From a virus: a stretch of DNA of 64,000 nt. Below the pieces are notes generated by a model, which saw only the letters and a list, made by a program, of their open reading frames with translations, searched no databases and was not told the origin of the DNA. The stretch's first letter is position 1, and the number at the start of each line of letters is the position of its first letter. The stretch lies in the IMG/VR virus record IMGVR_UViG_3300044614_002617, positions 1-64,000 of that record. The stretch is one strand, 5' to 3'. The position numbers were made by a program, and so were the translations under genes. Below, piece after piece: positions 21,073 through 61,708 of the stretch.

Positions 21073-21099
21073 TAAAGTTATTCTTGAGCGCGACGATAA
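21073..21099 (+). promoter_or_regulatory. sigma28/FliA-type promoter TAAA-N15-GACGATAA
   Basis: TAAAGTT...GACGATAA with canonical 15-nt spacing, followed by a GGGGG RBS and ATG 21120. Confidence 0.7.
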
Positions 21100-21119
21100 G
21101 TGTTATACAGGGGGTGCTT

Positions 21120-21338
21120 ATGTACATTGTTCTTGTTGAATCCGATGCTGCTCCGATGACTATGGTAAATTGGACTGTTGGTCAATCTTACGAAGCTGAA
21201 TTTGACACCTTGGGAGAGGCAGAAGCCTACGTGCGCTCGTTGGAGCGTTGGTCAGCTATGGACGCCCATGACGAGCTGTGGGCTTCTCACGGCCCACAAT
21301 TCAGAATTTTCTGCGAAGAGTCAGGCGAATACATTTAA
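21120..21338 (+). CDS. Small acidic hypothetical protein
   Basis: ATG 21120 follows an AGGGGG RBS within the 21084..21338 ORF. Confidence 0.6.
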   Translation: MYIVLVESDAAPMTMVNWTVGQSYEAEFDTLGEAEAYVRSLERWSAMDAHDELWASHGPQFRIFCEESGEYI

Positions 21339-21353
21339 CATTGGAGGCGTATT

Positions 21354-21725
21354 ATGCTTAAGTATTTGGTTTTTTTTGTTTTTTTGGTTGGTTGCGGGCA
21401 ACCGCCAACCCCAGATGAAGTAAAAGCAGAAAACCTTGTGTCTCAGTTTGCGGCTGATTGCAAAAACGTCTATGGGGATAGATGCGATATTCCTATAGTT
21501 GTCCACAGCCTTAGCGAGGCGGCCGACGATCAAACTTGTTGGTTTGAGGATGGAAATCCAGTTAGGCAACTTGTTTTACATAGAAAAATGGTAGTTCAAA
21601 ACAACAAAGAGGCTATTTATGAGTTTTTGTTTATGTGTTCTTTAAATTTAGGAACACTGGAAAAAAATCTTCTTAAGTTTGAAGAGTTTGCCTTGGTGTT
21701 GGGATTTTCTCAAATAAACGAATAA
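21354..21725 (+). CDS. Lipoprotein, likely inactive paralog of the 24675 metalloprotease
   Basis: Lipobox LVGC and a shared Cys pattern. The HExxH position reads 'YEFLF'. Confidence 0.55.
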   Translation: MLKYLVFFVFLVGCGQPPTPDEVKAENLVSQFAADCKNVYGDRCDIPIVVHSLSEAADDQTCWFEDGNPVRQLVLHRKMVVQNNKEAIYEFLFMCSLNLGTLEKNLLKFEEFALVLGFSQINE

Positions 21726-21729
21726 TTTC

Positions 21730-21758
21730 TTGAAAGACTTTTAAAAAGATAGTAAATT
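21730..21758 (+). promoter_or_regulatory. sigma70-type promoter TTGAAA-N17-TAAATT
   Basis: Intergenic, upstream of 21785. Confidence 0.45.
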
Positions 21759-21784
21759 ACCAAAAGTCAACGAGAGGATGCCCC

Positions 21785-22933
21785 ATGAAAAAAATCAATA
21801 TTGGAATTACTATCTTAGTTGAAGATTATAAGACTACAAATCTGTTTAGTAACGGGATTCGGCAAAATGTAATAACCCTTCAAAAACTTTTCAAAAAATG
21901 CAAAAATATAAATAATTCTTATATAATTAACACCTCTGGCATAAAAGGTAGTCCAGCCGGAACTGCGTGGGATGAGTACGCTCCGTTTATTATTACAAAG
22001 GAAGAAGCAAAACAAAAATGTGATTTAATCGTTGTTTGTCACGGCAGCCTTGCCGTAGAAGAATATGCTGCTTTTAGGGCAGCTGGCAAGAAAATAGTCA
22101 AGCAGATCCTCGGCGCGGAATTAGCAATGTTTAATGAACGAACATTATTTAATATTCCCGCTGGAGGTATCTATAAAAAAAATGAACATGTTTCCGCAGT
22201 TTGGCTTAGCCCTCACTTTTACGAGAGGGATCAGTATTTTTTTCAAGCAATCTACGGTTGCGAAACCCATATTGGCCCATACATTTGGGATAGTAAATTT
22301 ATTCAAGAGCACGTTGAGATTTTTAATAAAAATCAAAAATACAACTTTACTGCAAATTACGTCCCGAGTGGAGAAAAAGCAAAAAAAATTTCCACTATGG
22401 AGCCAAACTTAAATGTGGTAAAAACCTGCGCTGTTCCGTTAATTACGGCGGAGCTTTTGGAAAGAAAAAGTCCAGAAACCATAAAGTTTTTTAGCGTTTT
22501 TGGCGGAAAAGAAGTTATGGAAAAACCTGATATGATTCAAATGGTTAAAGACTTTGAAATTAACAAAAATAAAAAATGTTTTTTTGAGGCAAGATATCCA
22601 ATTGTGTGGACACTAAAGGAACATACCGATATTGTTTTGTGTCATCAAAATCAATGTGAATTAAATTATTTGTACTTAGATGCTGCATGGCTTGGGTATC
22701 CAGTGGTGCACAATAGTCCGATGATGAAAGAATTGGGTTGGTATTACCCGCAAAACGATTCAGAAACGGCAATTAAGCACTTAGAATACATAGCCAACCA
22801 TTTTGATACAAATGATTATGTAGACGAAAAATATTTAAAAAAATCAAGAGAATATGCGGCTCAATTCTTGCCGGATAACCCTAAGAATATTAAAGCGTAT
22901 GAAAAGCTAATTGAAAGGGTATATAACTCTTAA
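21785..22933 (+). CDS. DUF2827-like, glycosyltransferase-like (GT-B) protein
   Basis: 'IGIT...NGIRQN', 'MEPNLNVVKT' and 'HQNQCELNYLYLD..WLGYPVVHNS...GWYY' motifs. Confidence 0.65.
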   Translation: MKKINIGITILVEDYKTTNLFSNGIRQNVITLQKLFKKCKNINNSYIINTSGIKGSPAGTAWDEYAPFIITKEEAKQKCDLIVVCHGSLAVEEYAAFRAAGKKIVKQILGAELAMFNERTLFNIPAGGIYKKNEHVSAVWLSPHFYERDQYFFQAIYGCETHIGPYIWDSKFIQEHVEIFNKNQKYNFTANYVPSGEKAKKISTMEPNLNVVKTCAVPLITAELLERKSPETIKFFSVFGGKEVMEKPDMIQMVKDFEINKNKKCFFEARYPIVWTLKEHTDIVLCHQNQCELNYLYLDAAWLGYPVVHNSPMMKELGWYYPQNDSETAIKHLEYIANHFDTNDYVDEKYLKKSREYAAQFLPDNPKNIKAYEKLIERVYNS

Positions 22934-22944
22934 GGGGAAGTGCG

Positions 22945-23193
22945 ATGAAGGAAACATGGATTAGCGCAGCTAAAATAAAAAAAATGTTCAATCTTGAGCA
23001 AGAAGATTTAAATCAACTTGAACGAGAGGGAAAAGTTCAGACGATGTTGGCAGTCGGCAATCGAAAGCTTTATCTGGCCGCAAGCTTAGAGGGATACGAA
23101 AAAAAAACAAAGACCGTCTCGGAGCCGTCAAAGCACGACTCTTCAAAAACAAAACCAAGTTTTTTAAAAAGACTCCTGTCGAAATTTTTTTAA
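22945..23193 (+). CDS. Small MerR/excisionase-like HTH protein
   Basis: 'SAAKIKKMFNL...LEREGKV...GNRKLY'. Confidence 0.45.
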   Translation: MKETWISAAKIKKMFNLEQEDLNQLEREGKVQTMLAVGNRKLYLAASLEGYEKKTKTVSEPSKHDSSKTKPSFLKRLLSKFF

Positions 23194-23205
23194 CCAAGGA
23201 AAAAA

Positions 23206-23418
23206 ATGAAAGAATCTCAATGGCTTCTGGCGCAAAAAGCTTACGATAGAGTTCGGGAATTGTTAGCTGAAGACGGTCAGACGATGGAACAGGCGCAAAA
23301 AACGCTTGAAACGCTTGTGCTGTTTGTGGTTGGCAGTAAGCTAAATAAAGAAGAAAGCAATGTTCATCTAGCCAAGTTTTTAGAATCTGTGTTAAAAGGC
23401 GATAAGCCTCAGTGTTAG
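23206..23418 (+). CDS. Hypothetical protein
   Basis: 70-aa ORF with an AAGGA RBS. Confidence 0.55.
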   Translation: MKESQWLLAQKAYDRVRELLAEDGQTMEQAQKTLETLVLFVVGSKLNKEESNVHLAKFLESVLKGDKPQC

Positions 23419-23455
23419 TTAGAAATATTTTAATTTTTTTTAAACTGGATTTTTT

Positions 23456-23794
23456 ATGAAATATTTATTTTTATGCGCATTATTGATTGGTTGTGCGACA
23501 TCTCCGCAAGTTCCAAATTCGGCCTCACAGCCAACACCCTCCCCAGCCCCAATGCCCACGCGCAAGCCAAAATATAAAACCGGAGACTGTTTGATGATTG
23601 TGGATCTACCTAGCGGCGAGATCGAATCTCGTCATAGAGTCAGGATTGAGAGGATTGGCGTAGACCGATACTACTACAGATGGCTTCTTGACGGCAATCG
23701 TTGGGACTCGGAACTGTCGAGCGGTGCTGGCAAATTTGAAGTTTTAGAAAAGATTTCAAAAAAAGTATTTGACTGCCCTAAAGTTTCACCGTAA
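23456..23794 (+). CDS. Lipoprotein with Pro-rich linker and SH3-like beta domain
   Basis: Lipobox LIGC and 'KYKTGDC...RIERIG...DCP'. Similar to 62315..62653. Confidence 0.6.
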   Translation: MKYLFLCALLIGCATSPQVPNSASQPTPSPAPMPTRKPKYKTGDCLMIVDLPSGEIESRHRVRIERIGVDRYYYRWLLDGNRWDSELSSGAGKFEVLEKISKKVFDCPKVSP

Positions 23795-23805
23795 ATGGTC
23801 GATAA
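23779..23805 (+). promoter_or_regulatory. sigma28/FliA-type promoter TAAA-N15-GTCGATAA
   Basis: TAAAGTTT...GTCGATAA, followed by an AAGGAGG RBS and ATG 23844. Confidence 0.75.
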
Positions 23806-23843
23806 GTCTTATGTAAGCGGTTCAGCTTGCTAAGGAGGTTCTC

Positions 23844-25616: not shown

Positions 25617-26519
25617 ATGAATTTTTTTAAGTTTTTACGAGTTACAGAAGCGGCAGCTATTGCCAGTTCTAAATGGATTGGTAAGATGGACAAAAATGCA
25701 GCGGACGGAGCCGCTGTAGACGCCATGAGAGCAGAATTTGAGTTTATGGACATTCAAGGCGTTGTGGCTATTGGCGAAGGTGAGTTAGACGAAGCTCCTA
25801 TGTTGTACATTGGAGAAAAGCTGGGAATGGGTTGTGGCGACAAGTGTGACATTGCCGTAGATCCGCTAGAGGGTACCGAATTGGTTGCTAAAGGTAGGCC
25901 CAACGCTATCTCCGTGATGGTCGTGGGGGAGCAGGATACCCTTATGCGAGCACCTGACTGTTATATGAACAAAATAGTTGTGGGGCCAAAAGCCAAGAAT
26001 GCTCCGGTAAGTCTGTTTAAGGCTCCTGAACAAAACCTTAAAGCAATTGCCGACACAATGAAAAAATCAGTCAAAGATCTGACTGTTTGTGTCCTAGATA
26101 GGCCAAGACATACTGATTTGATTAAAGAAATTACCGAATCAGGAGCTAAAATATCACTTATTAGTGACGGCGACGTACTCGCTGCTATTGGTGTGTGTAT
26201 TGGCAAGTACGATGTGCTGATGGGGATTGGCGGTGCTCCGGAGGGTGTTATTTCGGCTGCAGCAGTCAAGAGTCTGGGTGGAAGGATTCTGGGACGTTTA
26301 GTATTAGACACACTAGAGATCAAAGAACGAGCCGCCAAGATGTGTAAGTGCGATGATATAGAGTACGATACAGCAGATATGGCTTACGGTGAACATATAG
26401 CCTTTATTGCGACAGGAGTGACAGACTCTTTTTTGCTGAACGGAGTCACTCAAGATGAAGTTCACTCAGTCATACTGACTCCAAAAGAAAGAAGATTTAT
26501 AAAGACGACTTATGGCTAA
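25617..26519 (+). CDS. glpX: Class II fructose-1,6-bisphosphatase (GlpX), auxiliary metabolic gene
   Basis: 'RVTEAAA', 'IGEGELDEAPMLYIGE', 'DIAVDPLEGT', 'LDRPRH', 'ISDGDV', 'GIGGAPEGVISAAA' and 'ATGVTD' motifs are all present. Confidence 0.92.
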   Translation: MNFFKFLRVTEAAAIASSKWIGKMDKNAADGAAVDAMRAEFEFMDIQGVVAIGEGELDEAPMLYIGEKLGMGCGDKCDIAVDPLEGTELVAKGRPNAISVMVVGEQDTLMRAPDCYMNKIVVGPKAKNAPVSLFKAPEQNLKAIADTMKKSVKDLTVCVLDRPRHTDLIKEITESGAKISLISDGDVLAAIGVCIGKYDVLMGIGGAPEGVISAAAVKSLGGRILGRLVLDTLEIKERAAKMCKCDDIEYDTADMAYGEHIAFIATGVTDSFLLNGVTQDEVHSVILTPKERRFIKTTYG

Positions 26520-28488: not shown

Positions 28489-28567
28489 TGCTAAAATAAT
28501 CTCACCGAATGGTATTTAAAGTCTGCGTTTTATTTGTGGGCTATACACACAAACAGTGAGAGAAAAA

Positions 28568-34456: not shown

Positions 34457-34791
34457 TGATTGTTGGTCACCTAAAAGATGTTGTTAAGGGAAAAGCAAAG
34501 TTTTTCTCAAGACGCTCTTCTAGGTGGCCATCATTGCGTAAATCTTATCTGGAGACTCATAACTCATGTGCGGCTTGCGGCTGCACTGAGTTTTTAGAGG
34601 TACACCACATCGAACCTTTTCATGAGAACCCCGCCCTAGAGCTAGACGCAAACAATCTAATTACGTTATGCGACAAACCCGGTAAAGATAATTGTCATTT
34701 AGAAATAGGCCATCTTGGTAGTTTTAGAAACAAAAACCCCAACGTCCGAGAAGACGCAGCCAAAATTCTTCAAGAAAAAACTAAAGAATAG
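34453..34791 (+). CDS. HNH endonuclease
   Basis: 'CAACG....LEVHHI.P......LD..NLITLC....CH...GH'. Located between TerL and portal, as packaging-associated HNHs often are. Confidence 0.85.
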   Translation: MMIVGHLKDVVKGKAKFFSRRSSRWPSLRKSYLETHNSCAACGCTEFLEVHHIEPFHENPALELDANNLITLCDKPGKDNCHLEIGHLGSFRNKNPNVREDAAKILQEKTKE

Positions 34792-34808
34792 TTTCTACAA
34801 TCCGATAA
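34782..34808 (+). promoter_or_regulatory. sigma28/FliA-type promoter TAAA-N15-TCCGATAA
   Basis: Canonical spacing, followed by a GGGGG RBS and ATG 34828. Confidence 0.7.
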
Positions 34809-34827: not shown

Positions 34828-34932
34828 ATGAAATTTGTTTTGGGCGCAATCGGTGTGTTTTTTAGTTATTTCATAATTAAAATCACAATGTTCTGGATCG
34901 GATTGTGCGTGTGGATTTTAAATTTGCTGTAA
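34828..34932 (+). CDS. 34-aa hydrophobic membrane peptide
   Basis: Read manually: MKFVLGAIGVFFSYFIIKITMFWIGLCVWILNLL. GGGGG RBS. Confidence 0.5.
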   Translation: MKFVLGAIGVFFSYFIIKITMFWIGLCVWILNLL

Positions 34933-34967: not shown

Positions 34968-35288
34968 ATGAAAAATATTTACGTTTGCGCTCCGTGGCGT
35001 GACCCCAACTCTATCTTGCAGTTTAATCAAATCTGTAATAAAATCATTGAGATGGGTAATAATCCTGTATGTTGGGCTACGGCATATCACTCTCTTCTTG
35101 ACTTTTCCGATTACAAAAACAGAGACAAAGCCGTTGCCATGGGGCTAATGCTAATGCACGGATGTCACGAAATATGGGTTTTTGGAGCAAAAACGCCGAT
35201 AATGCTTCAGGAGCTAGAAGCCGCTGCCGAAAAAAACATTCAAATTATAGAATACTCTATTCTTGACTTTCTTTGCAGTTCAAGGTAA
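34968..35288 (+). CDS. DUF4406 / nucleoside deoxyribosyltransferase-like Rossmannoid protein
   Basis: 'IYVCAPW...GNNPV...CHEIWVFG....M..ELEAA' pattern. Confidence 0.55.
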   Translation: MKNIYVCAPWRDPNSILQFNQICNKIIEMGNNPVCWATAYHSLLDFSDYKNRDKAVAMGLMLMHGCHEIWVFGAKTPIMLQELEAAAEKNIQIIEYSILDFLCSSR

Positions 35289-35291
35289 AAT
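35263..35291 (+). promoter_or_regulatory. sigma70-type promoter TTGACT-N17-TAAAAT
   Basis: Upstream of the 35316/portal operon. Confidence 0.6.
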
Positions 35292-38310: not shown

Positions 38311-38338
38311 TAAAGTTTGTTTTTATGTGTTCCGATAG
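38311..38338 (+). promoter_or_regulatory. sigma28/FliA-type promoter TAAAGTTT...TCCGATAG (N16)
   Basis: Directly after the portal stop, followed by a GGAGG RBS and ATG 38359. Confidence 0.65.
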
Positions 38339-38888: not shown

Positions 38889-38890
38889 TT

Positions 38891-39328: not shown

Positions 39329-39382
39329 AGCGGAAAGCAGCTTTTGTTTAAATGAAAACATACTTTTCTTTATGGTGTTTAA

Positions 39383-43155: not shown

Positions 43156-43184
43156 TTGACAAATCTCTAGACATTGCCTATCCT
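43156..43184 (+). promoter_or_regulatory. sigma70-type promoter TTGACA-N17-TATCCT
   Basis: Upstream of an AAGGAG RBS and 43205. Confidence 0.6.
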
Positions 43185-46296: not shown

Positions 46297-47223
46297 TTAA
46301 AAAATATTAAGCCTTTCTAAGGCGCTGATAAATTTAAACGCAGACATTTTTGAAACACATTCAGCCACTTCCATTTTTCTTGGGCAATTTGAAAAATCCC
46401 AAAAGTTTAAATTCCAATCTGATTCGCAAAAATTACAAATTATATTCGGAACAACCGGAATCGTTTGGGCTATGCCTCTATACGGAATGCGCAATTCAGG
46501 CTTAATTGTAGTAAAACCGCATACCACTGGAGTTTGGGTTGTCCATGCAATGTGAATAGGGCCGCCATCCATACCAACAACGGCTCTAGACTTGCTCATA
46601 ATAGCAGCAAGCTCTCTAAATGATGTTTTATCTCTTAAGTCTACTCCAAATCCCGGATACTCAAAGTCGCTCATTGCCAAATTGTTTTTCCATATACTGA
46701 TAGATCCTGTTTTTCCTACATAAACAGGAATCAGCCCTTTTGCATAAACGTATTCCGCTATTTTTTTAATTTCGGTTGGCAGAATAGTTCTTTGCTTATC
46801 TCTGTATGTAGTTATGATTACAACCGCTTTACTGAAATCTACGCCGTACTTACTAACATCCACTGGCTTTAGGGGCACATATTGCAATTCAGCGTCGCTG
46901 AGTATTTTTGCCATTAAGCCAATACAAGCGTAGTGAGTTAACTTAAGCCTCGAAGGAGTCAGCTTACATAGATTGCCGCCCGGAGCAGGAATATTTAGAT
47001 AGCGAACTGAATAATCTTTGTCGTAACTTCCGCTGATTTCTGTAAATTTTTCTTCTGGAACAAAAGGAAACAAATCTTTAAAATCTGGATAGATTCCAAC
47101 TTTATAGTCGGTTTGCTGATGATACGTTTCGATTGCATGCTTAAGAATAGGAGCAGCGGCAATCAAGTCACCTACGGCGGCGCTATTAAGGCAATAAATT
47201 GTTTTATTCGCAAACATAATCAA
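46297..47223 (-). CDS. Glycosyltransferase family 9 (heptosyltransferase-like, GT-B)
   Basis: 'AVGDLIAAAP', 'DLRDKTSFRELAAIM' and 'VVGMDGGPIHIA...PVVCGF'. Confidence 0.75.
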   Translation of the reverse strand: MIMFANKTIYCLNSAAVGDLIAAAPILKHAIETYHQQTDYKVGIYPDFKDLFPFVPEEKFTEISGSYDKDYSVRYLNIPAPGGNLCKLTPSRLKLTHYACIGLMAKILSDAELQYVPLKPVDVSKYGVDFSKAVVIITTYRDKQRTILPTEIKKIAEYVYAKGLIPVYVGKTGSISIWKNNLAMSDFEYPGFGVDLRDKTSFRELAAIMSKSRAVVGMDGGPIHIAWTTQTPVVCGFTTIKPELRIPYRGIAQTIPVVPNIICNFCESDWNLNFWDFSNCPRKMEVAECVSKMSAFKFISALERLNIF

Positions 47224-48671
47224 ACCTCTTTATAAACAATATCATCCGTTATTGTTTCATAAACGCCATATCTTGATTTAGCATACTGTTTAAAAATATC
47301 AAAGAACTTTTCGCTATCACTATTCCAAATTCCATAACCAGCAGTTGTAATATCAATAAAGATAAGTTTTTTTCCTTTCTTGTACCGTAACCCACGACCA
47401 ATAACCTGTCGAGTCAGAGCCTCCGCCGAGTTTTGAACGCAAGAAATCATAAAGTCAACATCGGGCAAGTCGATGCCCTCTCCCAGTAGGCTGCTGTTGG
47501 AAACCAGCAAATTAGTCTTTCCGTCTTTGAATTTATAAAAAGGATTTCGATAGCCACTGTGGGCGGGCTCGCAGTTTACTCCCATCTCAGTTGCATATTC
47601 ACAAAATTCTGCTGATGGCTCTACGGTTTTAAATAGTACCAAGACCTTAAGGCCTCTGTTTAGTCCACTTTTTACTAAATTAAGCACCGTATGAAGTGCT
47701 TTTTCATGAGTCGAAAGCATCTTATAAGCTGTCTGCTGATGGGTCATCTCTCGAACGCGCCCCAGTCCAGTGACCGTAAGGCAAGTGATGGCTACGGGAC
47801 AAAGGTACTCATTATCAATAGCCCACTTACTGTCTCTTTGAAAGACGATAGGCCCAACAATTCCATGAAAGCCCAACTCTAAATTATCCGCTCTAACTGG
47901 CGTTGCGGTAAACCCATAAATATATTTAGCTCGACTTCCAAAAATAGCCAGCTCTTTATACATATTAGAGGAGGAATGGTGAGCTTCGTCAATAATAATA
48001 GCATCGAAGATGTCTGAATAGTTACGGCCACTATTAACAGTAGCAATAGCAATATCAACACCCTCTTTAAATTTATGTTTTCCACCGATGCCGCAACTTT
48101 TAGGAGCAATCTGTTTGATATCTTTAAGCATCTGAGAGATAAGTTCGACAGTGGGAACAACGATGAGGACTCGGAGGCCGCGCTCGATGAGGGCGCGGCT
48201 TAGTAGACTGATACACATTGACTTGCCAGTTCCTGTAGGCAGGACAATACAACCTCTCTTGTACTGAAGGGCTGTTCTGACTGCTTCGGCTTGATAGTCT
48301 CTTGGAACTTTAGGTCCAACGGGAGATAGGTTAAGCTCTCTGTCTTTTTCTTTATGGCCTTCCATATTGGGAACAAGCCACCAGAATCCGGGAGGTACGC
48401 TCAAAGTACCGTCTTCATTATCGCCATAAAACTCAACTTTGGTTTCTAACTCTAACTGTTTAATTTCATTTTTAATTTTGATTGCGTGTTTGTCGTTGTA
48501 AGGTTTTTGGCGTTTGAGTTGTTTAATCTTTGAAATAACGCCCTTATTTTCAACCGTCAAGAGTTTCTTGACAGTTTCAAGTACGTCTGAAGAGCCAGAC
48601 AGGGTAATTTCATTATTTTTATATTCACCTATAAGACCGTGTATGGGCTCAAAGGCATTATCTTTAGCCAT
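47220..48671 (-). CDS. Superfamily 2 DNA helicase (UvsW/XPB-like)
   Basis: Q motif 'RDYQ', Walker A 'PTGTGKS', 'DEAH', 'TAT', 'EGIDLP' and 'QVIGRGLR'. Confidence 0.9.
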   Translation of the reverse strand: MAKDNAFEPIHGLIGEYKNNEITLSGSSDVLETVKKLLTVENKGVISKIKQLKRQKPYNDKHAIKIKNEIKQLELETKVEFYGDNEDGTLSVPPGFWWLVPNMEGHKEKDRELNLSPVGPKVPRDYQAEAVRTALQYKRGCIVLPTGTGKSMCISLLSRALIERGLRVLIVVPTVELISQMLKDIKQIAPKSCGIGGKHKFKEGVDIAIATVNSGRNYSDIFDAIIIDEAHHSSSNMYKELAIFGSRAKYIYGFTATPVRADNLELGFHGIVGPIVFQRDSKWAIDNEYLCPVAITCLTVTGLGRVREMTHQQTAYKMLSTHEKALHTVLNLVKSGLNRGLKVLVLFKTVEPSAEFCEYATEMGVNCEPAHSGYRNPFYKFKDGKTNLLVSNSSLLGEGIDLPDVDFMISCVQNSAEALTRQVIGRGLRYKKGKKLIFIDITTAGYGIWNSDSEKFFDIFKQYAKSRYGVYETITDDIVYKEV

Positions 48672-49546: not shown

Positions 49547-49924
49547 ATGCCAAACATTTTTTCTGACAATGGTGTAGCTGGACTAAAGCTAGATTACGGC
49601 GAAGCAACAAAAGCCGCTTTGGCTGCAGCCACGGAGCTTGCCCCGGTAATGTTGATTACGTTGGCAGATCAGTCTCATAAAATTATTTTCCATAATGATT
49701 CTGACCAAGAAGTGCAAGTTTTGATTGCAAACCCATCTAGCTTGGAAGGAGCTTGGCAAAAACTACTTTGTCTTGCTCCCGGGCAAAGTTTGCCAATTGA
49801 AAACTATGCTGGGCCTATGTGCCTATTTCCGCCTCGCACTAAATTTGCAGCATATTCTCTTGGATCGCATGTTGGAATCGCCGATCCGGAAGGCAAGTGC
49901 AGAGTTTACGCTTGGTTGGCGTAA
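49547..49924 (+). CDS. Small beta-rich putative virion protein
   Basis: GAGGA RBS. Follows the protease gene. Confidence 0.5.
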   Translation: MPNIFSDNGVAGLKLDYGEATKAALAAATELAPVMLITLADQSHKIIFHNDSDQEVQVLIANPSSLEGAWQKLLCLAPGQSLPIENYAGPMCLFPPRTKFAAYSLGSHVGIADPEGKCRVYAWLA

Positions 49925-49930
49925 ATAATT

Positions 49931-49956
49931 AAGGGGAGCTATGCTCCCCTTTTTTT
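49931..49956 (+). terminator. Rho-independent terminator AAGGGGAGC-TAT-GCTCCCCTT-T-tract
   Basis: Perfect 9-bp stem followed by a T-tract, between convergent genes. Confidence 0.8.
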
Positions 49957-50506
49957 ATTTCTTGCCCAGTCTTGCTACTTCTTGAACTATCACATCAAAG
50001 ACAGAAGTGCTTCTCTCGTCAGCCATCTCAAGTAGTCGCTTCAGAAGAAGCTCAAGGGTTTTATTAGCTATTTGTTTATCGTAATCAGCCTGAGCAGCCC
50101 CATGAACAATAATGCGATAATCACCCGTCGTAGCAACATCCTGGGTTTTATCTTTTAGAACCTTTGAAAGAACTTCTGGCTTTTTTGACCTCGCTTTTGA
50201 TGGGGTTTTCTTAGAAGAATTATTAAGAACAAACACATCTGGCTTGGGTGTAGGCTTAGCAACGGATGCCTTCTTGGATTTATTTTTTGATTTCTTGGAG
50301 GCAAACTCAGCCCTTAGTGCACTCAAGATTGGCAGCTCTTCAGAGGCGTTTTCTTTGTTTTCTTCTTGGTTAAGTGCCTGCTTAGCCTCCTCAAGAGAGG
50401 AAAACCGTCCCAAGTAGATCCTCTTGGAGTCACGAACGACTCTGACAAGATATTTACGTTCAGTTGCGCTGTAAGAAATACCCTTAATTCCAATTTTCAT
50501 AATCAT
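49955..50506 (-). CDS. AP2-domain DNA-binding protein
   Basis: 'KGISY....KYLVRV....RIYLGRFSSLEEA' AP2 motif, followed by a Lys-rich linker. No HNH domain. Confidence 0.65.
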   Translation of the reverse strand: MIMKIGIKGISYSATERKYLVRVVRDSKRIYLGRFSSLEEAKQALNQEENKENASEELPILSALRAEFASKKSKNKSKKASVAKPTPKPDVFVLNNSSKKTPSKARSKKPEVLSKVLKDKTQDVATTGDYRIIVHGAAQADYDKQIANKTLELLLKRLLEMADERSTSVFDVIVQEVARLGKK

Positions 50507-50959: not shown

Positions 50960-53900
50960 ATGTCTGAAATTTTACACAAAGACTTGATTGGCGAAGACAT
51001 TCACGAGTTGCGTATTGCGATTGGATCGTCTGCCCCTTCTTCTATGCCTTTGTTTGTCGGGCAGGGATATTACGATATTGTCAATAAAAAGTTTTATGTT
51101 TCGCAAGGAACGGCTACAATTTCTGATTGGGTTACCACGGAAATCCCTCCCTTTTTAGCATTTATGGATACAAGGACTATTACTTGGACTTCTAATACAG
51201 CTGGAAATCAAATCACTTACAGCGCAAATGTTGAAGAGGCTGAGCTAATCCTTACATCTGAAAATGTTACTGATTTTTCAAATGCTGTTTTGACTATTCC
51301 TCAAATTGTTTCCTTGTTGGCGGATCAACACACTCGTTTGATTATGAGAACCGGCGGCGAACCTCAGCCAACTGTTTGGAATCCTGTTTATTTCAATGGT
51401 CTAGAGCTCGATAGCGATTCTCAAAAAATCAGATTGTCACAAGATTTGTCGGATATTGGTACTCCTACTTTTAATGAAGTGACGCTTACTGTTAGAGCAA
51501 AAACCCCTATCCTAACTTTGACTCCGGATGGTGTGCCCGCTTCCGCATCGCTTTATCTTGATGCTGATAAAGGCATGGTTGCAAGAGGATACGCTGGTTC
51601 AACGTCTAGCTTTACGCTTCAGAACGAGGCTGGCACGGACGTACTTAACAATCCGGTTGGTTCTAATCAACTAATCGCCCCCTCGCTAGCGGCTGGAGCT
51701 GGAGCGTCGGGCGTGGTGCATTCCAACGCAAACGGTCTTTTAAGTGCATCTAAAATTGTCGATGCAGACGTTGATGCTGCAGCGGCAATTCAGGGAACCA
51801 AAATCGTCCCTGATTTTGGAAGTCAAGATATTACGACAACTGGCAGTATTTTTGTTGATACAATTGAATCGAATACTGATGATATTGGTATTTTGACAGG
51901 AAACGCAAACAAAAATATTTCGATTGGTACAGGCTCTGGATACAATACAATTACGCTTGGCGGCATAAACTCTACCGTTAATATCTCAGGAGCAACATAC
52001 ACCACTCCAATTGAGTATGTCTCTGAAGATAAAAACATTGTCGTAAACTTTAATGCATCTGGCCAGGATTCGCAGGACTCAGGCGTTTATGTTCAAGAAG
52101 AATACGCCGGTGCTCATATTGATTTGTTGGATGTCACCTGGCAATCTGGAAATACAGTTAGATATGCAGTTGACGGAGCCGGAAGCGGAGTTGATGGGCT
52201 TACTGCCGGCGAATATATTCGTGTTACTGGTTTTGTAAACAGTCAAAATAATGGAACTTTTAAGGCACTTACGGTAGATCCTGCATATATTGATGCCATT
52301 AACCCTAAAAGAACTGATGCCTCATTAGACGAAACCGGAGTTGCTGCTTCAAGCGCAGCTCGTTTGTTGCTAAACGGATATGTTCATGTGGGCTCTACTC
52401 GCATGAGCTGGGAAGTTCGAGCGCCTGCTCACTTGGGAATTATTGAACTAAAACCACAAGCAGTTGCAAAAACATTACTTTTAACTAGCGAATCCGCAGA
52501 CAACGTAACCGTTAAATTTAATACAAATTTGACGATTGATCAAGATTTGCAAAAAACCTCGGCGGTTGAGTTTTCTGAACTAACGGTTTCTGATTTAACT
52601 ACGGGCGTTCTGCATGCCGATGTGGACGGCAAGGTCTCTTCATCTTTGATTGTTAATGCCGATGTTGACGGTGCGGCTGCAATTGCAGGAACTAAAATTG
52701 TTCCTGACTTTGGAAGCCAAGATATTACAACGACTGGGCACTCTTCTTCTGCAAGTGTAAAAATTACCGGCACTGAACCAGTTGGAGGAGCTAATTTATT
52801 TTCTAGCCCCTCTAATGGATTAGTAGTTAGGGGAATTGCAGGAACAGGTTCTCAATTTAAATTTATAAGTGATTTGGGTGTAAATTTAGTAACAATTTCA
52901 GACACATCTGTTACTCTACATAACTTAACAAGTGGCCTAGTTAAATCATCCGCAGGTGTACTGTCGTCTTCCTTGCTTGTTGATGCCGATGTTGATGCAG
53001 CGGCTAATATTCAGGGCAGTAAGATTGAAGCGGCTAGTGCAACAAATGCGGGCGCCGTTACTACATCTTCGCAGTCATTTTCTGGAGATAAAACATTTAC
53101 CGGAAGCTTAACTTTTTCTAGTTTTGCTACGGCGGGAGTCGTTCATAACGATGAATACGGTTTGTTGTCTACATCGTTAATAATGAACGCCGACGTTGAT
53201 CCAATGGCAGCGATTTCTGCTTCTAAAATCGCCAATCAGCCAGCAGGAAACATTGCAGCCACGGACGTTCAAAGTGCGATCAATGAGATTGACACGGACA
53301 AAGTAGCAAAAGCCGGCGATAGTATGACCGGCAACCTATCCTTTTCCTCAAATTTTGGAATTGAGTCATCAGCCGCCTTAAGCACTTTAAATGTTGGTAC
53401 CGCTCCAAACACTTCTGTTCTTAATTTAGGAACAGGAAGCTCAACGAATGTGATTAATTTGGGAACGGGCTCTGGCGTAACCACAATTAATATTGGTGGC
53501 GCAGGCGATACAATTAATATTACGGGCACCCTAAACAGCGTTAATGTTACAGACATGGATGTAACTGATAAAAATATTACGCTCAATAAACAAGGGGCAC
53601 TAGCATCCGGAGACGGCGCCGGCCTTAATATTGAAGAAAATGCAGTTATTGCTGGATATGCTAAAGTTATAAACAGCCGAACAAGTTGGGGCTTTAAAGC
53701 GCCAGCAAATCAAGGAGAAGTTCAATTAACACCACCCGTTGGCTCATATATTGCAGAATTTAAGATCCCCGCATTAACAGCGTCGGCAGTTTATACGTTC
53801 CCCGCCGCAACCGACACCTTGGTTGGCCGAAATAGCACTGATAGTTTGTCTAACAAAACTCTTCTTGATCCGATTATTGATCAGATTAGTCCGTACAACG

Positions 53901-55867
53901 TAGATAAAACACTAAAAATTAACAGTACGGCAGCATTAAAAATTCCTGCTGGAACCGACGCACAGCGAGCTGCGTTTACTGCAGAAGACGGAATGGTTAG
54001 GTACAATACAACAAGTAATTTTTTTGAAGGTCATTCAGGCGGCGGGTGGTCACCGCTAAGCGGAGGAAAGGTTGTTACCGTATCTTCTTTTACTACTTTA
54101 TCTAATGAAATTAGATATTTAACAAACACATTTGCGGCACCGTTTGCGGTTACCTTGCCATTTGGCGTTTTAAATTCAAGAATTGAAATCAAAGATTCTA
54201 CATATACATGGAAAAACAACAACCTAACTGTTATCCCTGCATCGGGGCAAAGGATCGATGGGTTTGCGATCGATGAGCATTTAGTTTGCGATGTTGACGG
54301 TGGATGGATTACCCTAGATTGGGATTCTGCTAACTCTCGATGGAATCTTTCAACCAACGCAATTGTTGACCTAAACGACACATACGCGACTGAGAGTTAT
54401 GCCGGTATTGTTAGCACAGGGATTCAAACTTTTGCAGGCACAAAGACTTTTAACGATGGAATTGTGCTAAAAACAAATACAACTCCTGCGATTGCTCCCG
54501 CAGATGGGATTCAGGTTTACGCCAAAAATGATAACAAACTATACACGCTTAACTCTTTGGGTATTGAGCAGGCGGTTGGTTCCGGCGGATCTGTACTGTC
54601 TATTTCTCAAGCCGCACATGGTTTTACATTTAACGATATCGGTCGTCCCTTGTATCTTAACGGTTCAGTATATGCTTTTGCGCAAGCTGATACTGAAGCA
54701 AAAGCCGAAGTTGCTGCTCTGCTTAGTCGCGTTGTTGATGTTGATAATTTTGAAATTTGTCTTGGCGGGGAAGTGTCACCAGTTGGCGCAAACTTGATCG
54801 TCGGTGGCGGCGCTCTTACACCCGGAGAAGTGTATTTCCTCTCCGCATCCGAAGCTGGTAAGATTTCAACTACTCCACCTTCTGTTGTAGGTCAAATTTC
54901 CAAGCCCGTTGGTATTGCCCGAACTACGACTGAGCTTGATTTCTTCAATATGACCGGTTCTACAGTTGGCGGCACAAACGTATACACGCAGATTGGCCTT
55001 ACTAATAACGCGGTTACAACCATTCAAAATGCTTCGGCTTATGACAGCGTTGAGCTTTCTGGTTGGGTTTATGTTAACGCAACTGTTAAATATCGTTTTG
55101 CTATCAAAGTTCAGGTAACTAAAAAGGGCGATAATACTAATTATTTGGTAAGCTTCCAACATTCCGGTGACACTCCACCGTCTGGATTTGACGTTGACGC
55201 TACGGCGGCTGGTCTTGTGCAAGTCACATTACCCTCAATTGCCGGATTCACGTCTGCAGTTATTCAGTTTAATCTAAATGGCCCTGCGGTTGGCGCTAGC
55301 TTGCCGTTGCAAATCGAATCAACTAATGTAAGTTTTAGTACGGTACAGGCTAAAGATAGTACCGGTATTGCCTTTAAAAATTCATCCGGAACCACGGTCG
55401 CAACCTTAAATAATAGCGGCCATTTACTTTTGCCAAAAATTCCAGCGTTTTATGCATGGCGGCCTGGTGGCAATCAATCGACTTTAACGGGTGCGTTTGG
55501 AACGATTGCGCCCGTATTTAACACAACAAGAGTAAATGTTGATAACTGTTATAACACAACAAATGGTCGTTTTACCGCACCAGTTGCGGGTATTTATGAA
55601 TTCCAGTTTGGCATTACCGCAAGATGGGTGTCTGCGGTAGGAAATCTAGAACCAACATTCTATGTAGATGGTTCAAATGTTTCACCCAGAGGTTGTGGAT
55701 ATACAACATTAACTGCGGTTCAAGACCACGACTTTATGCATGTTTATGTAATGGTATCGCTCAATGCCGGACAATACGTTCAGTGCGGAATTCATGCTTG
55801 CTCCGCAGGTGTTGATTACTACTATGGTGAAAATTTAGCGTATTTTTCTGGTAAATTAATAGGTTAA
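50960..55867 (+). CDS. Long tail fibre protein with C-terminal C1q-like head
   Basis: Internal repeats 'IVDADVD..AAI.GTKIVPDFGSQDITTTG' and 'Q.F.G.KTF' fibre motifs. C-terminal 'PAF...GRFTAPVAGIYEF...FSGKLIG'. Confidence 0.75.
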   Translation: MSEILHKDLIGEDIHELRIAIGSSAPSSMPLFVGQGYYDIVNKKFYVSQGTATISDWVTTEIPPFLAFMDTRTITWTSNTAGNQITYSANVEEAELILTSENVTDFSNAVLTIPQIVSLLADQHTRLIMRTGGEPQPTVWNPVYFNGLELDSDSQKIRLSQDLSDIGTPTFNEVTLTVRAKTPILTLTPDGVPASASLYLDADKGMVARGYAGSTSSFTLQNEAGTDVLNNPVGSNQLIAPSLAAGAGASGVVHSNANGLLSASKIVDADVDAAAAIQGTKIVPDFGSQDITTTGSIFVDTIESNTDDIGILTGNANKNISIGTGSGYNTITLGGINSTVNISGATYTTPIEYVSEDKNIVVNFNASGQDSQDSGVYVQEEYAGAHIDLLDVTWQSGNTVRYAVDGAGSGVDGLTAGEYIRVTGFVNSQNNGTFKALTVDPAYIDAINPKRTDASLDETGVAASSAARLLLNGYVHVGSTRMSWEVRAPAHLGIIELKPQAVAKTLLLTSESADNVTVKFNTNLTIDQDLQKTSAVEFSELTVSDLTTGVLHADVDGKVSSSLIVNADVDGAAAIAGTKIVPDFGSQDITTTGHSSSASVKITGTEPVGGANLFSSPSNGLVVRGIAGTGSQFKFISDLGVNLVTISDTSVTLHNLTSGLVKSSAGVLSSSLLVDADVDAAANIQGSKIEAASATNAGAVTTSSQSFSGDKTFTGSLTFSSFATAGVVHNDEYGLLSTSLIMNADVDPMAAISASKIANQPAGNIAATDVQSAINEIDTDKVAKAGDSMTGNLSFSSNFGIESSAALSTLNVGTAPNTSVLNLGTGSSTNVINLGTGSGVTTINIGGAGDTINITGTLNSVNVTDMDVTDKNITLNKQGALASGDGAGLNIEENAVIAGYAKVINSRTSWGFKAPANQGEVQLTPPVGSYIAEFKIPALTASAVYTFPAATDTLVGRNSTDSLSNKTLLDPIIDQISPYNVDKTLKINSTAALKIPAGTDAQRAAFTAEDGMVRYNTTSNFFEGHSGGGWSPLSGGKVVTVSSFTTLSNEIRYLTNTFAAPFAVTLPFGVLNSRIEIKDSTYTWKNNNLTVIPASGQRIDGFAIDEHLVCDVDGGWITLDWDSANSRWNLSTNAIVDLNDTYATESYAGIVSTGIQTFAGTKTFNDGIVLKTNTTPAIAPADGIQVYAKNDNKLYTLNSLGIEQAVGSGGSVLSISQAAHGFTFNDIGRPLYLNGSVYAFAQADTEAKAEVAALLSRVVDVDNFEICLGGEVSPVGANLIVGGGALTPGEVYFLSASEAGKISTTPPSVVGQISKPVGIARTTTELDFFNMTGSTVGGTNVYTQIGLTNNAVTTIQNASAYDSVELSGWVYVNATVKYRFAIKVQVTKKGDNTNYLVSFQHSGDTPPSGFDVDATAAGLVQVTLPSIAGFTSAVIQFNLNGPAVGASLPLQIESTNVSFSTVQAKDSTGIAFKNSSGTTVATLNNSGHLLLPKIPAFYAWRPGGNQSTLTGAFGTIAPVFNTTRVNVDNCYNTTNGRFTAPVAGIYEFQFGITARWVSAVGNLEPTFYVDGSNVSPRGCGYTTLTAVQDHDFMHVYVMVSLNAGQYVQCGIHACSAGVDYYYGENLAYFSGKLIG

Positions 55868-59482: not shown

Positions 59483-59483
59483 T

Positions 59484-60878
59484 ATGTTTTTTAATAATGC
59501 CGTTGGTGTGCTAGCAACACAAAAAGCAACTGAAACAGAAGAAAAAATTACATCTTCTATAACAAAAACAATGACATCCGCATACGTACCTCAAAGTATT
59601 AAAGTTTGGGGCACTGGCGGGGGAGCCGGTGGAGCCAATGGAGCAAATGGGGCAAATGGTAATACCGGCGGCTCAGGAGTAAACGGAGGTACCGGTATAG
59701 CTGGATCCGGAGACAGCGGAGGTCGTGGCTGGTCGAGCGGCGGATACGGTTACGGTGGAGCCGGCGGAGCTGGCGGAGCCGCTGGCAACGGAGGAGCAGG
59801 CGGAGCCGGTGGAGCAGGCGGAGCAGGCGGTGGAAAAGGATCCGGAAATTTAAATAATTACATTTCTGAAAATTACAATACATATGATTTTTTTTCTGAT
59901 TTTATTGGCGGGGTTGATATCGCAATTGTTGTTGGAAACGGAGGGAACGCTCAAACAAACGGAAGTTCATCTGGCCTAAGTGTTAATGGGGTTCAAAAAA
60001 TTATGTATTCAGGTGGGCTCATAAACCAATCACCTGGAACGCCGGGAGCAAACGGAACAAACGGTACGGCTGGCAGCGGCGGAGCCGGTGGAGCCGGGGG
60101 TGCGCTCGTCGGAGGATCTGGAGTAAATGGCGGAGGCGCAGGAGGAGGAAGTGGCGGAGCTGGTGGCAGCGGACGAGGAGCCGGTGGAACCGGGGGCGCC
60201 GGTGGGATTGGTGGAAGCAAGAACATTGGTTTCGTCTTAAATGGTATAGAATACGGAACCGGGGGCGCCGGTGGTAACGGGGGCGCCGGTGGTAACGGTG
60301 GAATTGGTGGACTTGGTGGAAATGGCGGAAATGGCGGAAATGGTTATGGAGGGGGAGGCGGAGGACAGTCTGTTTATCAAACAGACTTTTGGTACTCTTA
60401 CGCTGGAAACTCCGGAGGTTGGGGCTGGGGCGGCGGCGGCGGTAGCGGGGCGGCTGATATCTTCGCAGCTTTACCTGGAGGAAACGGAGGCTCTTCGGTA
60501 AATGGATACAGTGGAGGAGCCGGAGGTGTGCTTCCGCCTAGTAGTTATGGAGGGGGAAGCGGAGGCGGCGGCGGTGCCGGCTCCGGCGGAAATGGCGGTG
60601 GCGGTGGCGTTGGGTATTATTCAGGAGATGTGTACTATCCGGGCGGCGGAGGCGGCGGTGGCTGGGGCGGCGGAGGAAATGGCGGACGAGGGCAAGGATA
60701 TTTGGGGCCATACTCCGGGGGCTCAGAAAGCGGCTATGGCGGAAGCGGTGGAGGATACGGAGGAGCAGGCGGAGCCGGGGGTGCTTCTGGTGGGGCAGGA
60801 ACATCCGGAACTGCCGGTCAAGCTGGACAAGCTGGCAAAAATGGCATAATAATTATTAGATATAAAGTGTTTGAGTAG
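59484..60878 (+). CDS. Glycine-rich (GGxGGx) adhesin-like protein
   Basis: Extensive GGAGGAGG/GGNGG runs interspersed with aromatic loops. C-terminal 'GIIIIRY'. Confidence 0.7.
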   Translation: MFFNNAVGVLATQKATETEEKITSSITKTMTSAYVPQSIKVWGTGGGAGGANGANGANGNTGGSGVNGGTGIAGSGDSGGRGWSSGGYGYGGAGGAGGAAGNGGAGGAGGAGGAGGGKGSGNLNNYISENYNTYDFFSDFIGGVDIAIVVGNGGNAQTNGSSSGLSVNGVQKIMYSGGLINQSPGTPGANGTNGTAGSGGAGGAGGALVGGSGVNGGGAGGGSGGAGGSGRGAGGTGGAGGIGGSKNIGFVLNGIEYGTGGAGGNGGAGGNGGIGGLGGNGGNGGNGYGGGGGGQSVYQTDFWYSYAGNSGGWGWGGGGGSGAADIFAALPGGNGGSSVNGYSGGAGGVLPPSSYGGGSGGGGGAGSGGNGGGGGVGYYSGDVYYPGGGGGGGWGGGGNGGRGQGYLGPYSGGSESGYGGSGGGYGGAGGAGGASGGAGTSGTAGQAGQAGKNGIIIIRYKVFE

Positions 60879-60896
60879 AAACTAGAATACAAAAAT

Positions 60897-60925
60897 TTGA
60901 CTTTAAAAAAACTGTTTTGTAAAAT
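60897..60925 (+). promoter_or_regulatory. sigma70-type promoter TTGACT-N17-TAAAAT
   Basis: Intergenic, followed by a GGAGG RBS and 60944. Confidence 0.6.
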
Positions 60926-60943
60926 TTTTTTGGAGGTTCTTAT

Positions 60944-61678
60944 ATGTCAGATATTATTGTAAGAAATGCTGGCACAGCCGTTTCTACTATTCTAGAAACA
61001 ATTAAGCCAATGTCGGTCATCAAAAAAGAAGATCAGCAGTTTCTTGTTGAGCATAAAGAGCATTTTGCTCAGGTATTTGAAAAAACGCACATCTGGAGAA
61101 CAGACACACAAAAGCTTTCAATTGTTTCGGATAGCTATCACCCAACTCTACACTCTAAGTTTCATCAAGCAATTCTAGAACAAAAAGTTCAATTAGACCA
61201 GACTTTCTATTTGGCAAAAGATTTTGAAATGAAAAAAATTGAAATTGAAGAACTAATGCTAGATCTAGAGGATCTGGGCGATACCGCTAGGGACGAACTT
61301 AAAAGACGTAAATTTGAAATTGAACTTCAGTTTAAAAAGTATGAACTAGATCAAATGGTTATTTCCATGAATTATAGAATGGCGGAAGTAAAAGGTTGGC
61401 AAAAAATTCAAGAAGATCTTTTAATTAAACTGCGAGAATCGGGAATGGACGAGGAAACAATTTGGAGCAAAGACGCTGGAGAGGTGGAGTCAATGTTCTT
61501 TGGTACACTTACTCGCTTGCAGGGTCTGGCCAAAACAACGGACGGTGCCGAAGCAAATAACCTAATAGCTTTGGCTCAGTTTTACGTACAAAAAGTTCAA
61601 GAAAGTGGAAGACTTCCGGAATTAAAAAAGAAATGCAATAAGGCTCAACTGGACTCTCTTAAATTTTTAGGATATTAA
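60944..61678 (+). CDS. Coiled-coil hypothetical protein
   Basis: 244 aa, 'WRT...PT..SKF.QA..EQ' pattern. Confidence 0.6.
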   Translation: MSDIIVRNAGTAVSTILETIKPMSVIKKEDQQFLVEHKEHFAQVFEKTHIWRTDTQKLSIVSDSYHPTLHSKFHQAILEQKVQLDQTFYLAKDFEMKKIEIEELMLDLEDLGDTARDELKRRKFEIELQFKKYELDQMVISMNYRMAEVKGWQKIQEDLLIKLRESGMDEETIWSKDAGEVESMFFGTLTRLQGLAKTTDGAEANNLIALAQFYVQKVQESGRLPELKKKCNKAQLDSLKFLGY

Positions 61679-61681
61679 TAT

Positions 61682-61708
61682 TAAAGTTCTTGCAACAAAA
61701 GACGATAA
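61682..61708 (+). promoter_or_regulatory. sigma28/FliA-type promoter TAAA-N15-GACGATAA
   Basis: Canonical spacing, followed by GGGAGGTTCTCATG (ATG 61736). Confidence 0.75.

Follow-up and report, generated by a model that had tools for sequence, protein, structure and literature searches.

Sigma-28 (FliA)-type promoters in a clade of freshwater phages, probably served by a sigma factor of the host

Lytic phages typically start transcription with the housekeeping sigma factor of their host and then bring in factors of their own. Phages of the SPO1, T4, and phiEco32 types have their own sigma factor, and such phage proteins are sometimes too divergent to be recognized by Pfam models. The late promoters of T4 consist of a −10 box only, TATAAATA, which is read by gp55, and the middle and late promoters of Thermus phage P23-45 are of the extended −10 type. 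Sigma-28 (FliA) recognizes the consensus TAAAGTTT-n11-GCCGATAA (PMC2859248), whose −10 box spans positions −15 to −8 (PMC12784957), and reads the class 3 flagellar promoters of E. coli, Salmonella, and Pseudomonas (PMC2859248; PMC4183435/PMC4203485; PMC12784957). In the predator Bdellovibrio bacteriovorus HD100, FliA-type promoters drive the attack phase, most genes of which are under sigma-28 control (Karunker et al, 2013; PMC3627812); the initial annotation of the DNA analysed here had cited this role, and the published data agree with it. Phages of Alphaproteobacteria carry CtrA-binding sites, an arrangement termed "lytic deferment" (PMC9437464). No paper on phage gene blocks started from host sigma-28 promoters was found in the literature.

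The window (the whole stretch of DNA that was analysed, 64 kb) originates from an uncultured freshwater (lake) myovirus with a genome of ∼160 kb, of which Myxococcus phage Mx1 is a distant relative. It is part of a 110-kb record (G000), to which a complete relative of 162.7 kb (G001) and a further genome (G002) were compared. Of the listed sequencing runs that contain this DNA, none is recorded as RNA. Megablast with 25 kb of phage DNA found no match among isolated phages, and tblastn with two highly expressed-looking phage proteins found none either. Most of the genes lack annotation and no tRNA genes were found; the portal gene (36312–38309) was identified via Pfam PF04860 and its similarity to the Mx1 portal, and genes for LPS-heptose (GT9; SIS_2) are present in the phage genomes.

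Seven sigma-28-type sites had been listed for the window, and all of them are present at the coordinates and on the strands given (Table 1), including the distance of 15–16 nt from TAAA to the −10 octamer. Three more were found: 63576–63602 (−), a TCAAG variant at 39787–39813 (+), and, outside the window, genome position 102920–102945 (−). The sites of this class (class A) have the form (c/t)TAAAG(T/G)TT, 11 or 12 nt, (C)CGATAAG, and occur 8–9 times in the window, ∼10 times in the 110-kb record, and 17–25 times in the complete relative. Comparison with a shuffled background, which had been proposed as a check, revealed clear enrichment: TAAAG-N16-CGATA has five exact matches in the window (0.12 expected) and TAAAG-N17-CGATA has two (0.11 expected), together seven versus ∼0.2, and none of 100 shuffles reached either count. 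A chance or base-composition effect is thus ruled out. In three relatives, 18, 8, and 6 exact matches were counted; the reversed pattern, used as a control, gave 2, 0, and 0. With a position weight matrix (PWM), 12 matches of at least 14 bits were obtained in G000 (0.33 in random sequence) and 25 in G001 (0.55), statistics that, unlike the plain-pattern counts, involve some circularity, since sites from these two genomes served to train the matrix. Scanning IMG/VR with the exact 16-base pattern yielded 20 single matches and no new dense carriers.

Table 1. Candidate promoters of both classes (window coordinates unless stated otherwise).
Position	Strand	Feature	Score (bits)	Setting	Counterparts in relatives
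6827–6855	+	Class B, TTGAAA-N17-TAAAAT		Before gene for 2332-aa Baseplate_J-like protein (6890–13888)	Conserved in G001 at 21190
21073–21099	+	Sigma-28-type promoter, exact match	26.7	21 nt to ATG at 21120; heads run 21120–23794 (72, 123, 382 [DUF2827], 82, 70, 66–112 aa)	Orthologue in G001 at 34987
23779–23805	+	Sigma-28-type promoter, exact match	27.0	39 nt to ATG; run from 23844 (81, 92, 63 aa), onward to glpX (25617–26519); palindrome ATAAGTCTTAT spans −10 box and predicted start	Orthologues in G001 at 36458 and in L005/L011; both boxes kept, spacer different
28489–28497	+	Class B box TGCTAAAAT, without −35 element		70 nt before gene for 1966-aa coiled-coil/Ig-like protein	
34782–34808	+	Sigma-28-type promoter, exact match	24.2	Before 34-aa hydrophobic ORF (34828–34932)	Orthologues in L009, L013; G001 copy degenerate (CGATGA, 17.3 bits)
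35263–35291	+	Class B, TTGACT-N17-TAAAAT		Before 326-aa gene and portal gene	Conserved in G001 at 42282
38311–38338	+	Sigma-28-type promoter, N17 pattern	20.3	Adjoins portal stop codon; 21 nt to ATG at 38359; small-gene run 38359–42825	Covered by alignment A1
39787–39813	+	Candidate internal sigma-28-type site, TCAAG variant	19.5	Within 204-aa gene	Also in G001 at 46802 and in L147/L148
42899–42926	+	Sigma-28-type promoter, N17 pattern	23.4	22 nt to ATG; before 59-aa gene (42948–43127)	Orthologues in G001 at 49255 and in L013
50876–50902	−	Weaker sigma-28-type site, CCGAATA variant	12.4	22 nt to start at 50854; heads leftward genes of 39, 87, 183 aa; overlaps rightward TAAAAT promoter	Also in G001 at 57521 and in L008/L009
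50890–50918	+	Class B, TTGAAA-N17-TAAAAT		Before gene for 1635-aa fibre-like protein (50960–55867), C1q C-terminal domain	
60897–60925	+	Class B, TTGACT-N17-TAAAAT		Before 244-aa gene (60944–61678)	
61682–61708	+	Sigma-28-type promoter, exact match	28.2	Before 22-aa hydrophobic ORF (61736–61804), then small genes to 63036	Identical site in G001 at 65762
63576–63602	−	Sigma-28-type promoter, exact match	23.9	Inside 3′ end of 96-aa gene; 19 nt to 150-aa gene (63105–63557)	Orthologue in G001 at 68559
102920–102945 (genome)	−	Sigma-28-type site outside window		Replication module, before DnaB-like helicase	

The proposed identity of the motif with the sigma-28 (FliA) consensus held, as both boxes and the spacing agree. 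The −35 consensus of the phage sites is cTAAAGTTTT, in which the T/G and the TT following TAAAG contribute 0.7–0.9 bits, TAAAG itself being demanded by the site search. The −10 box is CGATAA, preceded by C in most sites, and the full GCCGATAA is found in distant members of the clade. The canonical 11-nt spacing is present in 30 of 42 phage sites, and in the other 12 it is one base longer. When the matrix built from the phage was applied to 50 kb of the E. coli K-12 genome (1.96–2.01 Mb), PfliC (15.8 bits), Ptar (19.3 bits), and PmotA (7.5 bits) together occupied ranks 1, 2, and 4 among only six matches of at least 5 bits (FliA promoters cross-checked with Table 2 of PMC4203485). Although both boxes and their spacing are those of class 3 flagellar promoters, the phage sites differ from these in lying in a virus genome, 17–25 per genome and before non-flagellar genes, in their very short predicted leaders, in the G following CGATAA, and in the longer spacer of 12 of the 42. 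Capture of host flagellar genes was considered as an origin and rejected, since the genes downstream of the sites are not flagellar.

The G directly after CGATAA distinguishes between the two reference regulons. It is present in 24/31 and 18/20 phage sites (77–90%) and in 26/35 promoters of B. bacteriovorus (74%), but only in 1/24 of E. coli (4%), with the reference counts made by eye and those for Bdellovibrio taken from Table S2 of PMC3627812 (Fisher p = 2e-8 for phage versus E. coli, 1.0 versus Bdellovibrio). This CCGATAAG flavour is common to the phage sites and the attack-phase promoters of strain HD100; in both, TAAAG-CCGATA distances of 15 and 16 nt are mixed, leaders are short, and the sigma-28 programme (a putative one in the phage) is far broader than flagella. 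In contrast, the −35 boxes of Bdellovibrio are far more degenerate, and the printed consensus of B. bacteriovorus, TTAAG-N16-CCGATA, has no match in G000 and G001, versus 8 and 18, respectively, for TAAAG-N16-CGATA.

Every site in the window is oriented like the gene that follows it. The PWM matches, too, are nearly all co-oriented with genes, and the high-scoring ones end 19–41 nt ahead of a start codon. The strong G-rich ribosome-binding sites (RBS) described by the initial annotation are indeed there (GGAGG/GGGGG), with 19–39 nt between the end of the site and the start codon. Orthologous class A sites have 65% identity in the spacer and 51% in the sequence downstream, whereas identity of the boxes themselves would be a circular measure, because the boxes were demanded by the site search. 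In alignment A1, which was made without this demand, TTAAAGTT and C(C/T)GATA are kept and the spacer is variable; two loci have a single C-to-T exchange in the −10 box, the sole change in either box. A subclass of the sites carries a palindrome, ATAAG-N-CTTAT, across the −10 box, which could suit a dimeric regulator, so that the two-box motif might serve as an operator for a DNA-binding protein of the phage, or act at the RNA level, and resemble FliA promoters by coincidence. We consider this very improbable: only a minority of sites has the palindrome; two short invariant boxes, a spacer that varies in sequence but not in length, a strict sense orientation, and a constant distance to the start codon are what a sigma-dependent promoter looks like; and the matrix also detects genuine FliA promoters of E. 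coli. Read as promoters, the sites would start transcripts 7–8 nt past CGATAA, and the predicted leaders of 12–14 nt (∼30 nt in a second subclass) would hold little beyond the RBS.

Such promoters could be read by a factor of the phage or of its host. A search with the sigma-family profiles Sigma70_r2, r4, r4_2, and TIGR02937 (PF04542, PF04545, PF08281), which gave matches in control genomes, returned nothing at E ≤ 1 in G000, the complete G001, and G002. Thus, the suggestion to look for a sigma factor of the phage's own ended with none recognizable in the record or in its complete relative. FlgM and a T7-type polymerase were likewise not found in the complete 162.7-kb relative, and the 25 families listed, out of 72 matched, in a Pfam scan of 102 of its mid-size proteins include none of the sigma type. 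Because no phage sigma factor is detectable, the phage probably relies on sigma-28 of its host for the class A promoters.

The distribution of the motif has to be weighed against this conclusion. In a tree of portal proteins (a quick IQ-TREE tree, for which distant loci were gathered by a search for related loci), the motif marks a single clade of 26 loci with GC contents of 38–56%, with sites in 20 of the 26. Neither the ∼210 kb from the sister clade of 12 loci nor the 169.6 kb of Mx1 contains a class A site. A lineage trait of this kind, present across a wide GC range and absent from the sister clade, is what a conserved phage gene would produce, and the many genes without annotation leave room for an unrecognized factor. 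The motif may accordingly be read by a very divergent sigma factor or a sigma-appropriating protein of the phage, its likeness to sigma-28 promoters being due to convergence or to an ancient captured fliA that is no longer recognizable. However, a protein reading both sigma-28 boxes at their proper spacing should have retained regions 2.4 and 4.2 and hence be detectable, and yet the complete relative yields no sigma70-family region at E ≤ 1. Moreover, the consensus of sigma-28 is maintained from one bacterial phylum to another, so that hosts can share it despite different GC contents, and the G after CGATAA agrees with a cellular sigma-28 regulon. A phage-encoded reader is, in our judgement, unlikely.

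The structural genes had been assigned to "sigma70-type" promoters (class B). The five sites named exist, but the two-hexamer consensus on which the assignment was based is not enriched, with counts of 34 versus 34.0 and 44 versus 44.0 in shuffles. What is in excess is the −10 box alone: intergenic TAAAAT occurs 48 times in G001 (12.1 expected) and 29 times in G000 (7.6 expected), co-oriented with the genes and at a median of 34 nt ahead of the start codon. TTGA is found at the proper distance from TAAAAT in just 6 of 48 cases, which makes the label "sigma70-type" uncertain for this class. Class B is therefore better described as a −10-only TAAAAT box, often TGnTAAAAT, before large structural genes. 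In mostly lacking a −35 box and preceding structural genes, it resembles the −10-only promoters of T4 and P23-45; in contrast to these, no gp55-like or −35-blocking factor was identified in this phage.

The two classes also differ in the genes behind them. The first gene after a class A site has a median size of 90–106 aa, versus 273–326 aa after a TAAAAT box (p = 1e-3 and 2e-4). That class A heads runs of accessory genes is correct insofar as small unannotated genes are concerned, but replication genes (DnaB-like helicase and others) follow such sites as well. PHROGs and Pfam provided almost no annotation for the genes downstream of class A sites, and the label "host-takeover genes" has no annotation behind it.

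We consider it fairly probable that the phage has two promoter classes, one of which (class A) would be read by the host's own sigma-28-family (FliA-type) RNA polymerase holoenzyme, while the −10-only class B precedes structural genes. Under class A control would be the blocks of small genes lacking annotation, the block with glpX and DUF2827, and sub-operons within the replication module; class A may represent the early/middle programme. If the host's sigma-28 reads class A, expression would consequently require a host in which free sigma-28 is available, namely a motile cell or a predator in its attack phase. In the CtrA-site phages (PMC9437464), gene expression is similarly wired to a regulator of the host that signals whether the cell bears flagella or pili; there, however, a response-regulator site is added to ordinary promoters, whereas here a whole promoter class would replace sigma specificity.

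Coupling to motility would be lost if the host factor were a sigma-28 relative not tied to swimming, such as a developmental factor (chlamydial sigma-28, actinobacterial WhiG) or a near-constitutive one. Non-flagellar programmes are under control of the sigma-28 family in Chlamydia (according to PMC12282069), most attack-phase genes of Bdellovibrio are under sigma-28 (PMC3627812), and the phage sequence bears no sign of flagellum dependence. On the other hand, the LPS-heptose genes (GT9, SIS_2) favour a Gram-negative host and speak against actinobacteria, and the −10 flavour is that of Bdellovibrio, in which sigma-28 activity coincides with the motile phase. We regard a factor of this kind as a poor candidate, too.

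Which hosts are concerned is a matter for more tentative statements. The best cellular matches of glpX have at most 51% identity and are scattered over archaea and bacteria, and for DUF2827 the protein Atlas gives "Pseudomonadota / viruses" only. It is conceivable, but in our view rather doubtful, that predatory Bdellovibrionota are the hosts of this entire clade of ∼160-kb freshwater phages. The phage programme would in that case follow the life stage of the predator. Accessory and replication genes would then be under the attack-phase sigma-28 and virion genes under −10-only promoters, infection would begin in the free-swimming, non-growing hunter, and the motif-free sister clade would have another strategy or another host group.

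The CCGATAAG flavour provides a promoter-based clue to the host of an abundant group of uncultured lake phages, and the class A consensus fits FliA of E. coli, too. The sister clade without the motif offers a natural comparison. If reliance on the host's sigma-28 is true, accessory and replication genes would be expressed only where the flagellar sigma factor is free, and these phages would possess a built-in sensor of host physiology, responding to motile cells or to the attack phase of a predator.

All seven sigma-28 (FliA)-type sites that the initial annotation had placed before accessory genes are present in the window as described (Table). This motif (class A, TAAAG-N16/17-CGATA) was enriched over shuffled background, with five occurrences of TAAAG-N16-CGATA against 0.12 expected and two of TAAAG-N17-CGATA against 0.11. 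A two-block matrix derived from 35 sites gave, at ≥14 bits, 12 matches in the record (0.33 in random sequence) and 25 in the complete relative G001 (0.55). Because its training sites came from the same genomes as were scanned, the independent evidence is the plain-pattern counts, which were 18, 8, and 6 in G001 and the further relatives G002 and G003, whereas the pattern reversed, as a control, occurred 2, 0, and 0 times. Just two of 35 distinct matrix matches in G001 (≥9 bits) were antisense to a gene, and strong sites end 19–41 nt 5′ of a start codon whose ribosome-binding site is GGAGG/GGGGG. Orthologous sites share 65% identity in the spacer and 51% downstream, box identity being circular here, as the search required the boxes; in a single alignment made without this requirement, both boxes were kept, the sole change being C to T in the −10 box at two loci. 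Tiny hydrophobic ORFs directly 3′ of three sites could encode membrane peptides or serve simply as leader ORFs.

The class A consensus, cTAAAG(T/G)TT followed by 11 nt (30 sites) or 12 nt (12 sites) and (C)CGATAAG, agrees with the sigma-28 promoter consensus TAAAGTTT-n11-GCCGATAA (PMC2859248), as the FliA assignment had claimed. When the phage matrix was run, as a cross-check, over 50 kb of E. coli K-12 (1.96–2.01 Mb), the top matches were Ptar (19.3 bits) and PfliC (15.8 bits), and PmotA (7.5 bits) was the fourth of six at ≥5 bits; Fitzgerald et al (PMC4203485, Table 2) list each of these three as a FliA site. Since the −10 box lies at −15 to −8 in the Pseudomonas open complex (PMC12784957), class A transcripts should start 7–8 nt 3′ of CGATAA. 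A short-leader subclass has a conserved cATGG(G/A)GG at the predicted start position, which suggests leaders of 12–14 nt. In a subclass of the sites, the palindrome ATAAG-N-CTTAT spans the −10 box and predicted start and may act as an operator.

Features of the window and, where stated, of related sequences
Feature	Position	Strand
Class A sites (first position)	21073, 23779, 34782, 38311, 42899, 61682	+
Class A site (first position)	50876	-
Further class A site	63576-63602	-
Further class A site, 5′ of DnaB-like helicase	genome 102920-102945	-
Conserved TCAAG variant of class A	39787	
ATAAG-N-CTTAT palindrome	23800-23812; G001 ~34577, 49109, 111911, 158193	
Hydrophobic ORF, 34 aa	34828-34932	+
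Hydrophobic ORF, 22 aa	61736-61804	+
Hydrophobic ORF, 39 aa	50735-50854	-
Baseplate_J-like giant	6890-13888	
DUF2827	21785-22933	
glpX	25617-26519	
Portal	36312-38309	
Heptosyltransferase (GT9)	46297-47223	-
SF2 helicase	47220-48671	-
Perfect bidirectional terminator hairpin	49931-49951	
C1q-tipped fibre-like protein	50960-55867	
DnaE and DnaB-like helicase	outside window	

The five sigma70-type sites proposed to head structural genes also exist, and four share TTGA(C/A)N-N17-TAAAAT (two of these conserved in G001), but the full two-hexamer consensus showed no excess over shuffles (34 versus 34.0 and 44 versus 44.0). The fifth, 43156-43184, has TTGACA with a poor −10 box (TATCCT) and adjoins an imperfect palindrome (GACAAATC...GACATTG) that G001 has kept; rather than a promoter, it may thus be a site for a regulator. 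TAAAAT itself (class B) occurs in intergenic DNA 48 times in G001 (12.1 expected) and 29 times in the record (7.6 expected), co-oriented with genes and at a median of 34 nt 5′ of the start codon. Of the 48 boxes, 29 have T at −3, 11 have TGn, and 40 are followed by a purine at 7 nt downstream. TTGA is found at the −35 position in six only; thus, class B is a −10-only box, which may represent an extended −10 sigma-70 promoter or require a phage factor. Large genes that it precedes include those of the Baseplate_J giant, a 1966-aa protein, and the C1q fibre, as well as the pair formed by the portal gene and the one before it; the first gene downstream has a median length of 273–326 aa, versus 90–106 aa for class A (p = 2e-4 and 1e-3). 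The proposed accessory/structural split is real in outline, but class A is not purely "accessory," because parts of the replication module, too, begin with it.

The 110,367-bp IMG/VR record, of which the window (42% GC) is bases 1–64000, is 67% complete by estimate. No near relative of the window DNA was found among isolated phages; the record's DnaE-type polymerase and portal are closest to those of Myxococcus phage Mx1 (32% and 24% identity, respectively). Portals 89–95% identical to the window's are encoded on ten IMG/VR contigs, among them G001 (162,747 bp, classed as complete), whose positions 14458–131898 are collinear with the record at ∼75–80% nucleotide identity. The phage sequence recurs in metagenomes of lakes and rivers, with at least 38% of sampled words present in nine runs, each from a different study. 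With a terminal repeat of only 127 bp, G001 may be a circularly permuted genome with arbitrary ends; these carry three tail-collar-domain paralogues, of which the two at the right (L022:1081-1866 and L022:1906-2694) share 78% and 75% identity with the left-end copy (L014:114-905). The terminator hairpin in the window (9 pairs, six G-C) separates convergent genes 49547-49924 (+) and 49955-50506 (−).

A factor reading both sigma-28 boxes at sigma-28 spacing should resemble a sigma-28. Six-frame searches with Sigma70_r2, r4, r4_2, and TIGR02937 gave zero matches in the record, G002, and complete G001, even at E ≤ 1, while control genomes gave matches. Neither FlgM nor, in a search without positive control, a T7-type polymerase was found. 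Scanning 102 mid-size proteins of G001 against Pfam gave no sigma family among the matches listed (25 of 72 families), which comprised nucleotide-metabolism, lysozyme, Clp protease, Mom, SIS, and other families. Individual proteins among these listed matches were dCMP deaminases, dNMP kinase, the RNR small chain, Clp protease, a Mom-family protein, a deoxyhypusine synthase homologue, and an alliinase-like protein; of these, the hypusine and Mom genes stand out as unusual cargo. With no sigma-28-like factor detected in the phage, the host's own is the economical reading, and it probably reads class A.

Searching with an alignment of distant portals recruited 52 loci, and a portal tree was computed with quick IQ-TREE. 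In a 26-row portal clade (support 93), 20 loci (GC 38–56%) had at least one site of ≥15 bits; no such site occurred in the 12-row sister clade (support 99; ∼210 kb scanned), and Mx1 (169.6 kb) had zero exact matches to the class A pattern. The trait is old and stable within one lineage, which fits a shared phage factor as well as a shared host group; a cryptic phage-encoded factor as the reader of class A is nevertheless unlikely, given the lack of any sigma70-family match in the three genomes searched.

Concerning the host whose sigma-28 would be used, G follows CGATAA in 24/31 near-clade sites and in 18/20 sites from distant members of the clade, for which the corresponding matrix columns were set to zero as a guard against bias. 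By our counts, the same holds for 26/35 B. bacteriovorus attack-phase promoters that carry a FliA flag (PMC3627812, Table S2) and 1/24 FliA sites of E. coli (published table, PMC4203485). The phage differs from E. coli (Fisher p = 2e-8) and not from Bdellovibrio (p = 1.0), in a comparison of two reference organisms only and with mutually non-independent phage sites. Bdellovibrio promoters resemble class A in using spacers of two lengths and have very short leaders, as predicted for class A; unlike class A, the printed B. bacteriovorus consensus is TTAAG-N16-CCGATA (PMC3627812), which has no match in the phage. The GT9 heptosyltransferase and a GmhA-like SIS-domain (SIS_2) protein in G001, which are phage-borne LPS-heptose genes, point to a Gram-negative host, with surface remodelling perhaps their role. 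No host signal came from glpX, DUF2827, cluster look-ups, or a tRNA search.

The observation behind the initial annotation is confirmed, and its interpretation is partly supported. Full-text literature searches turned up no paper in which sigma-28 promoters form a promoter class of a phage; the nearest concept is CtrA sites in phages of Alphaproteobacteria (PMC9437464). Class A would belong to a known kind, the host-sigma-dependent phage promoter class, and its novelty would lie in the flagellar sigma factor used.
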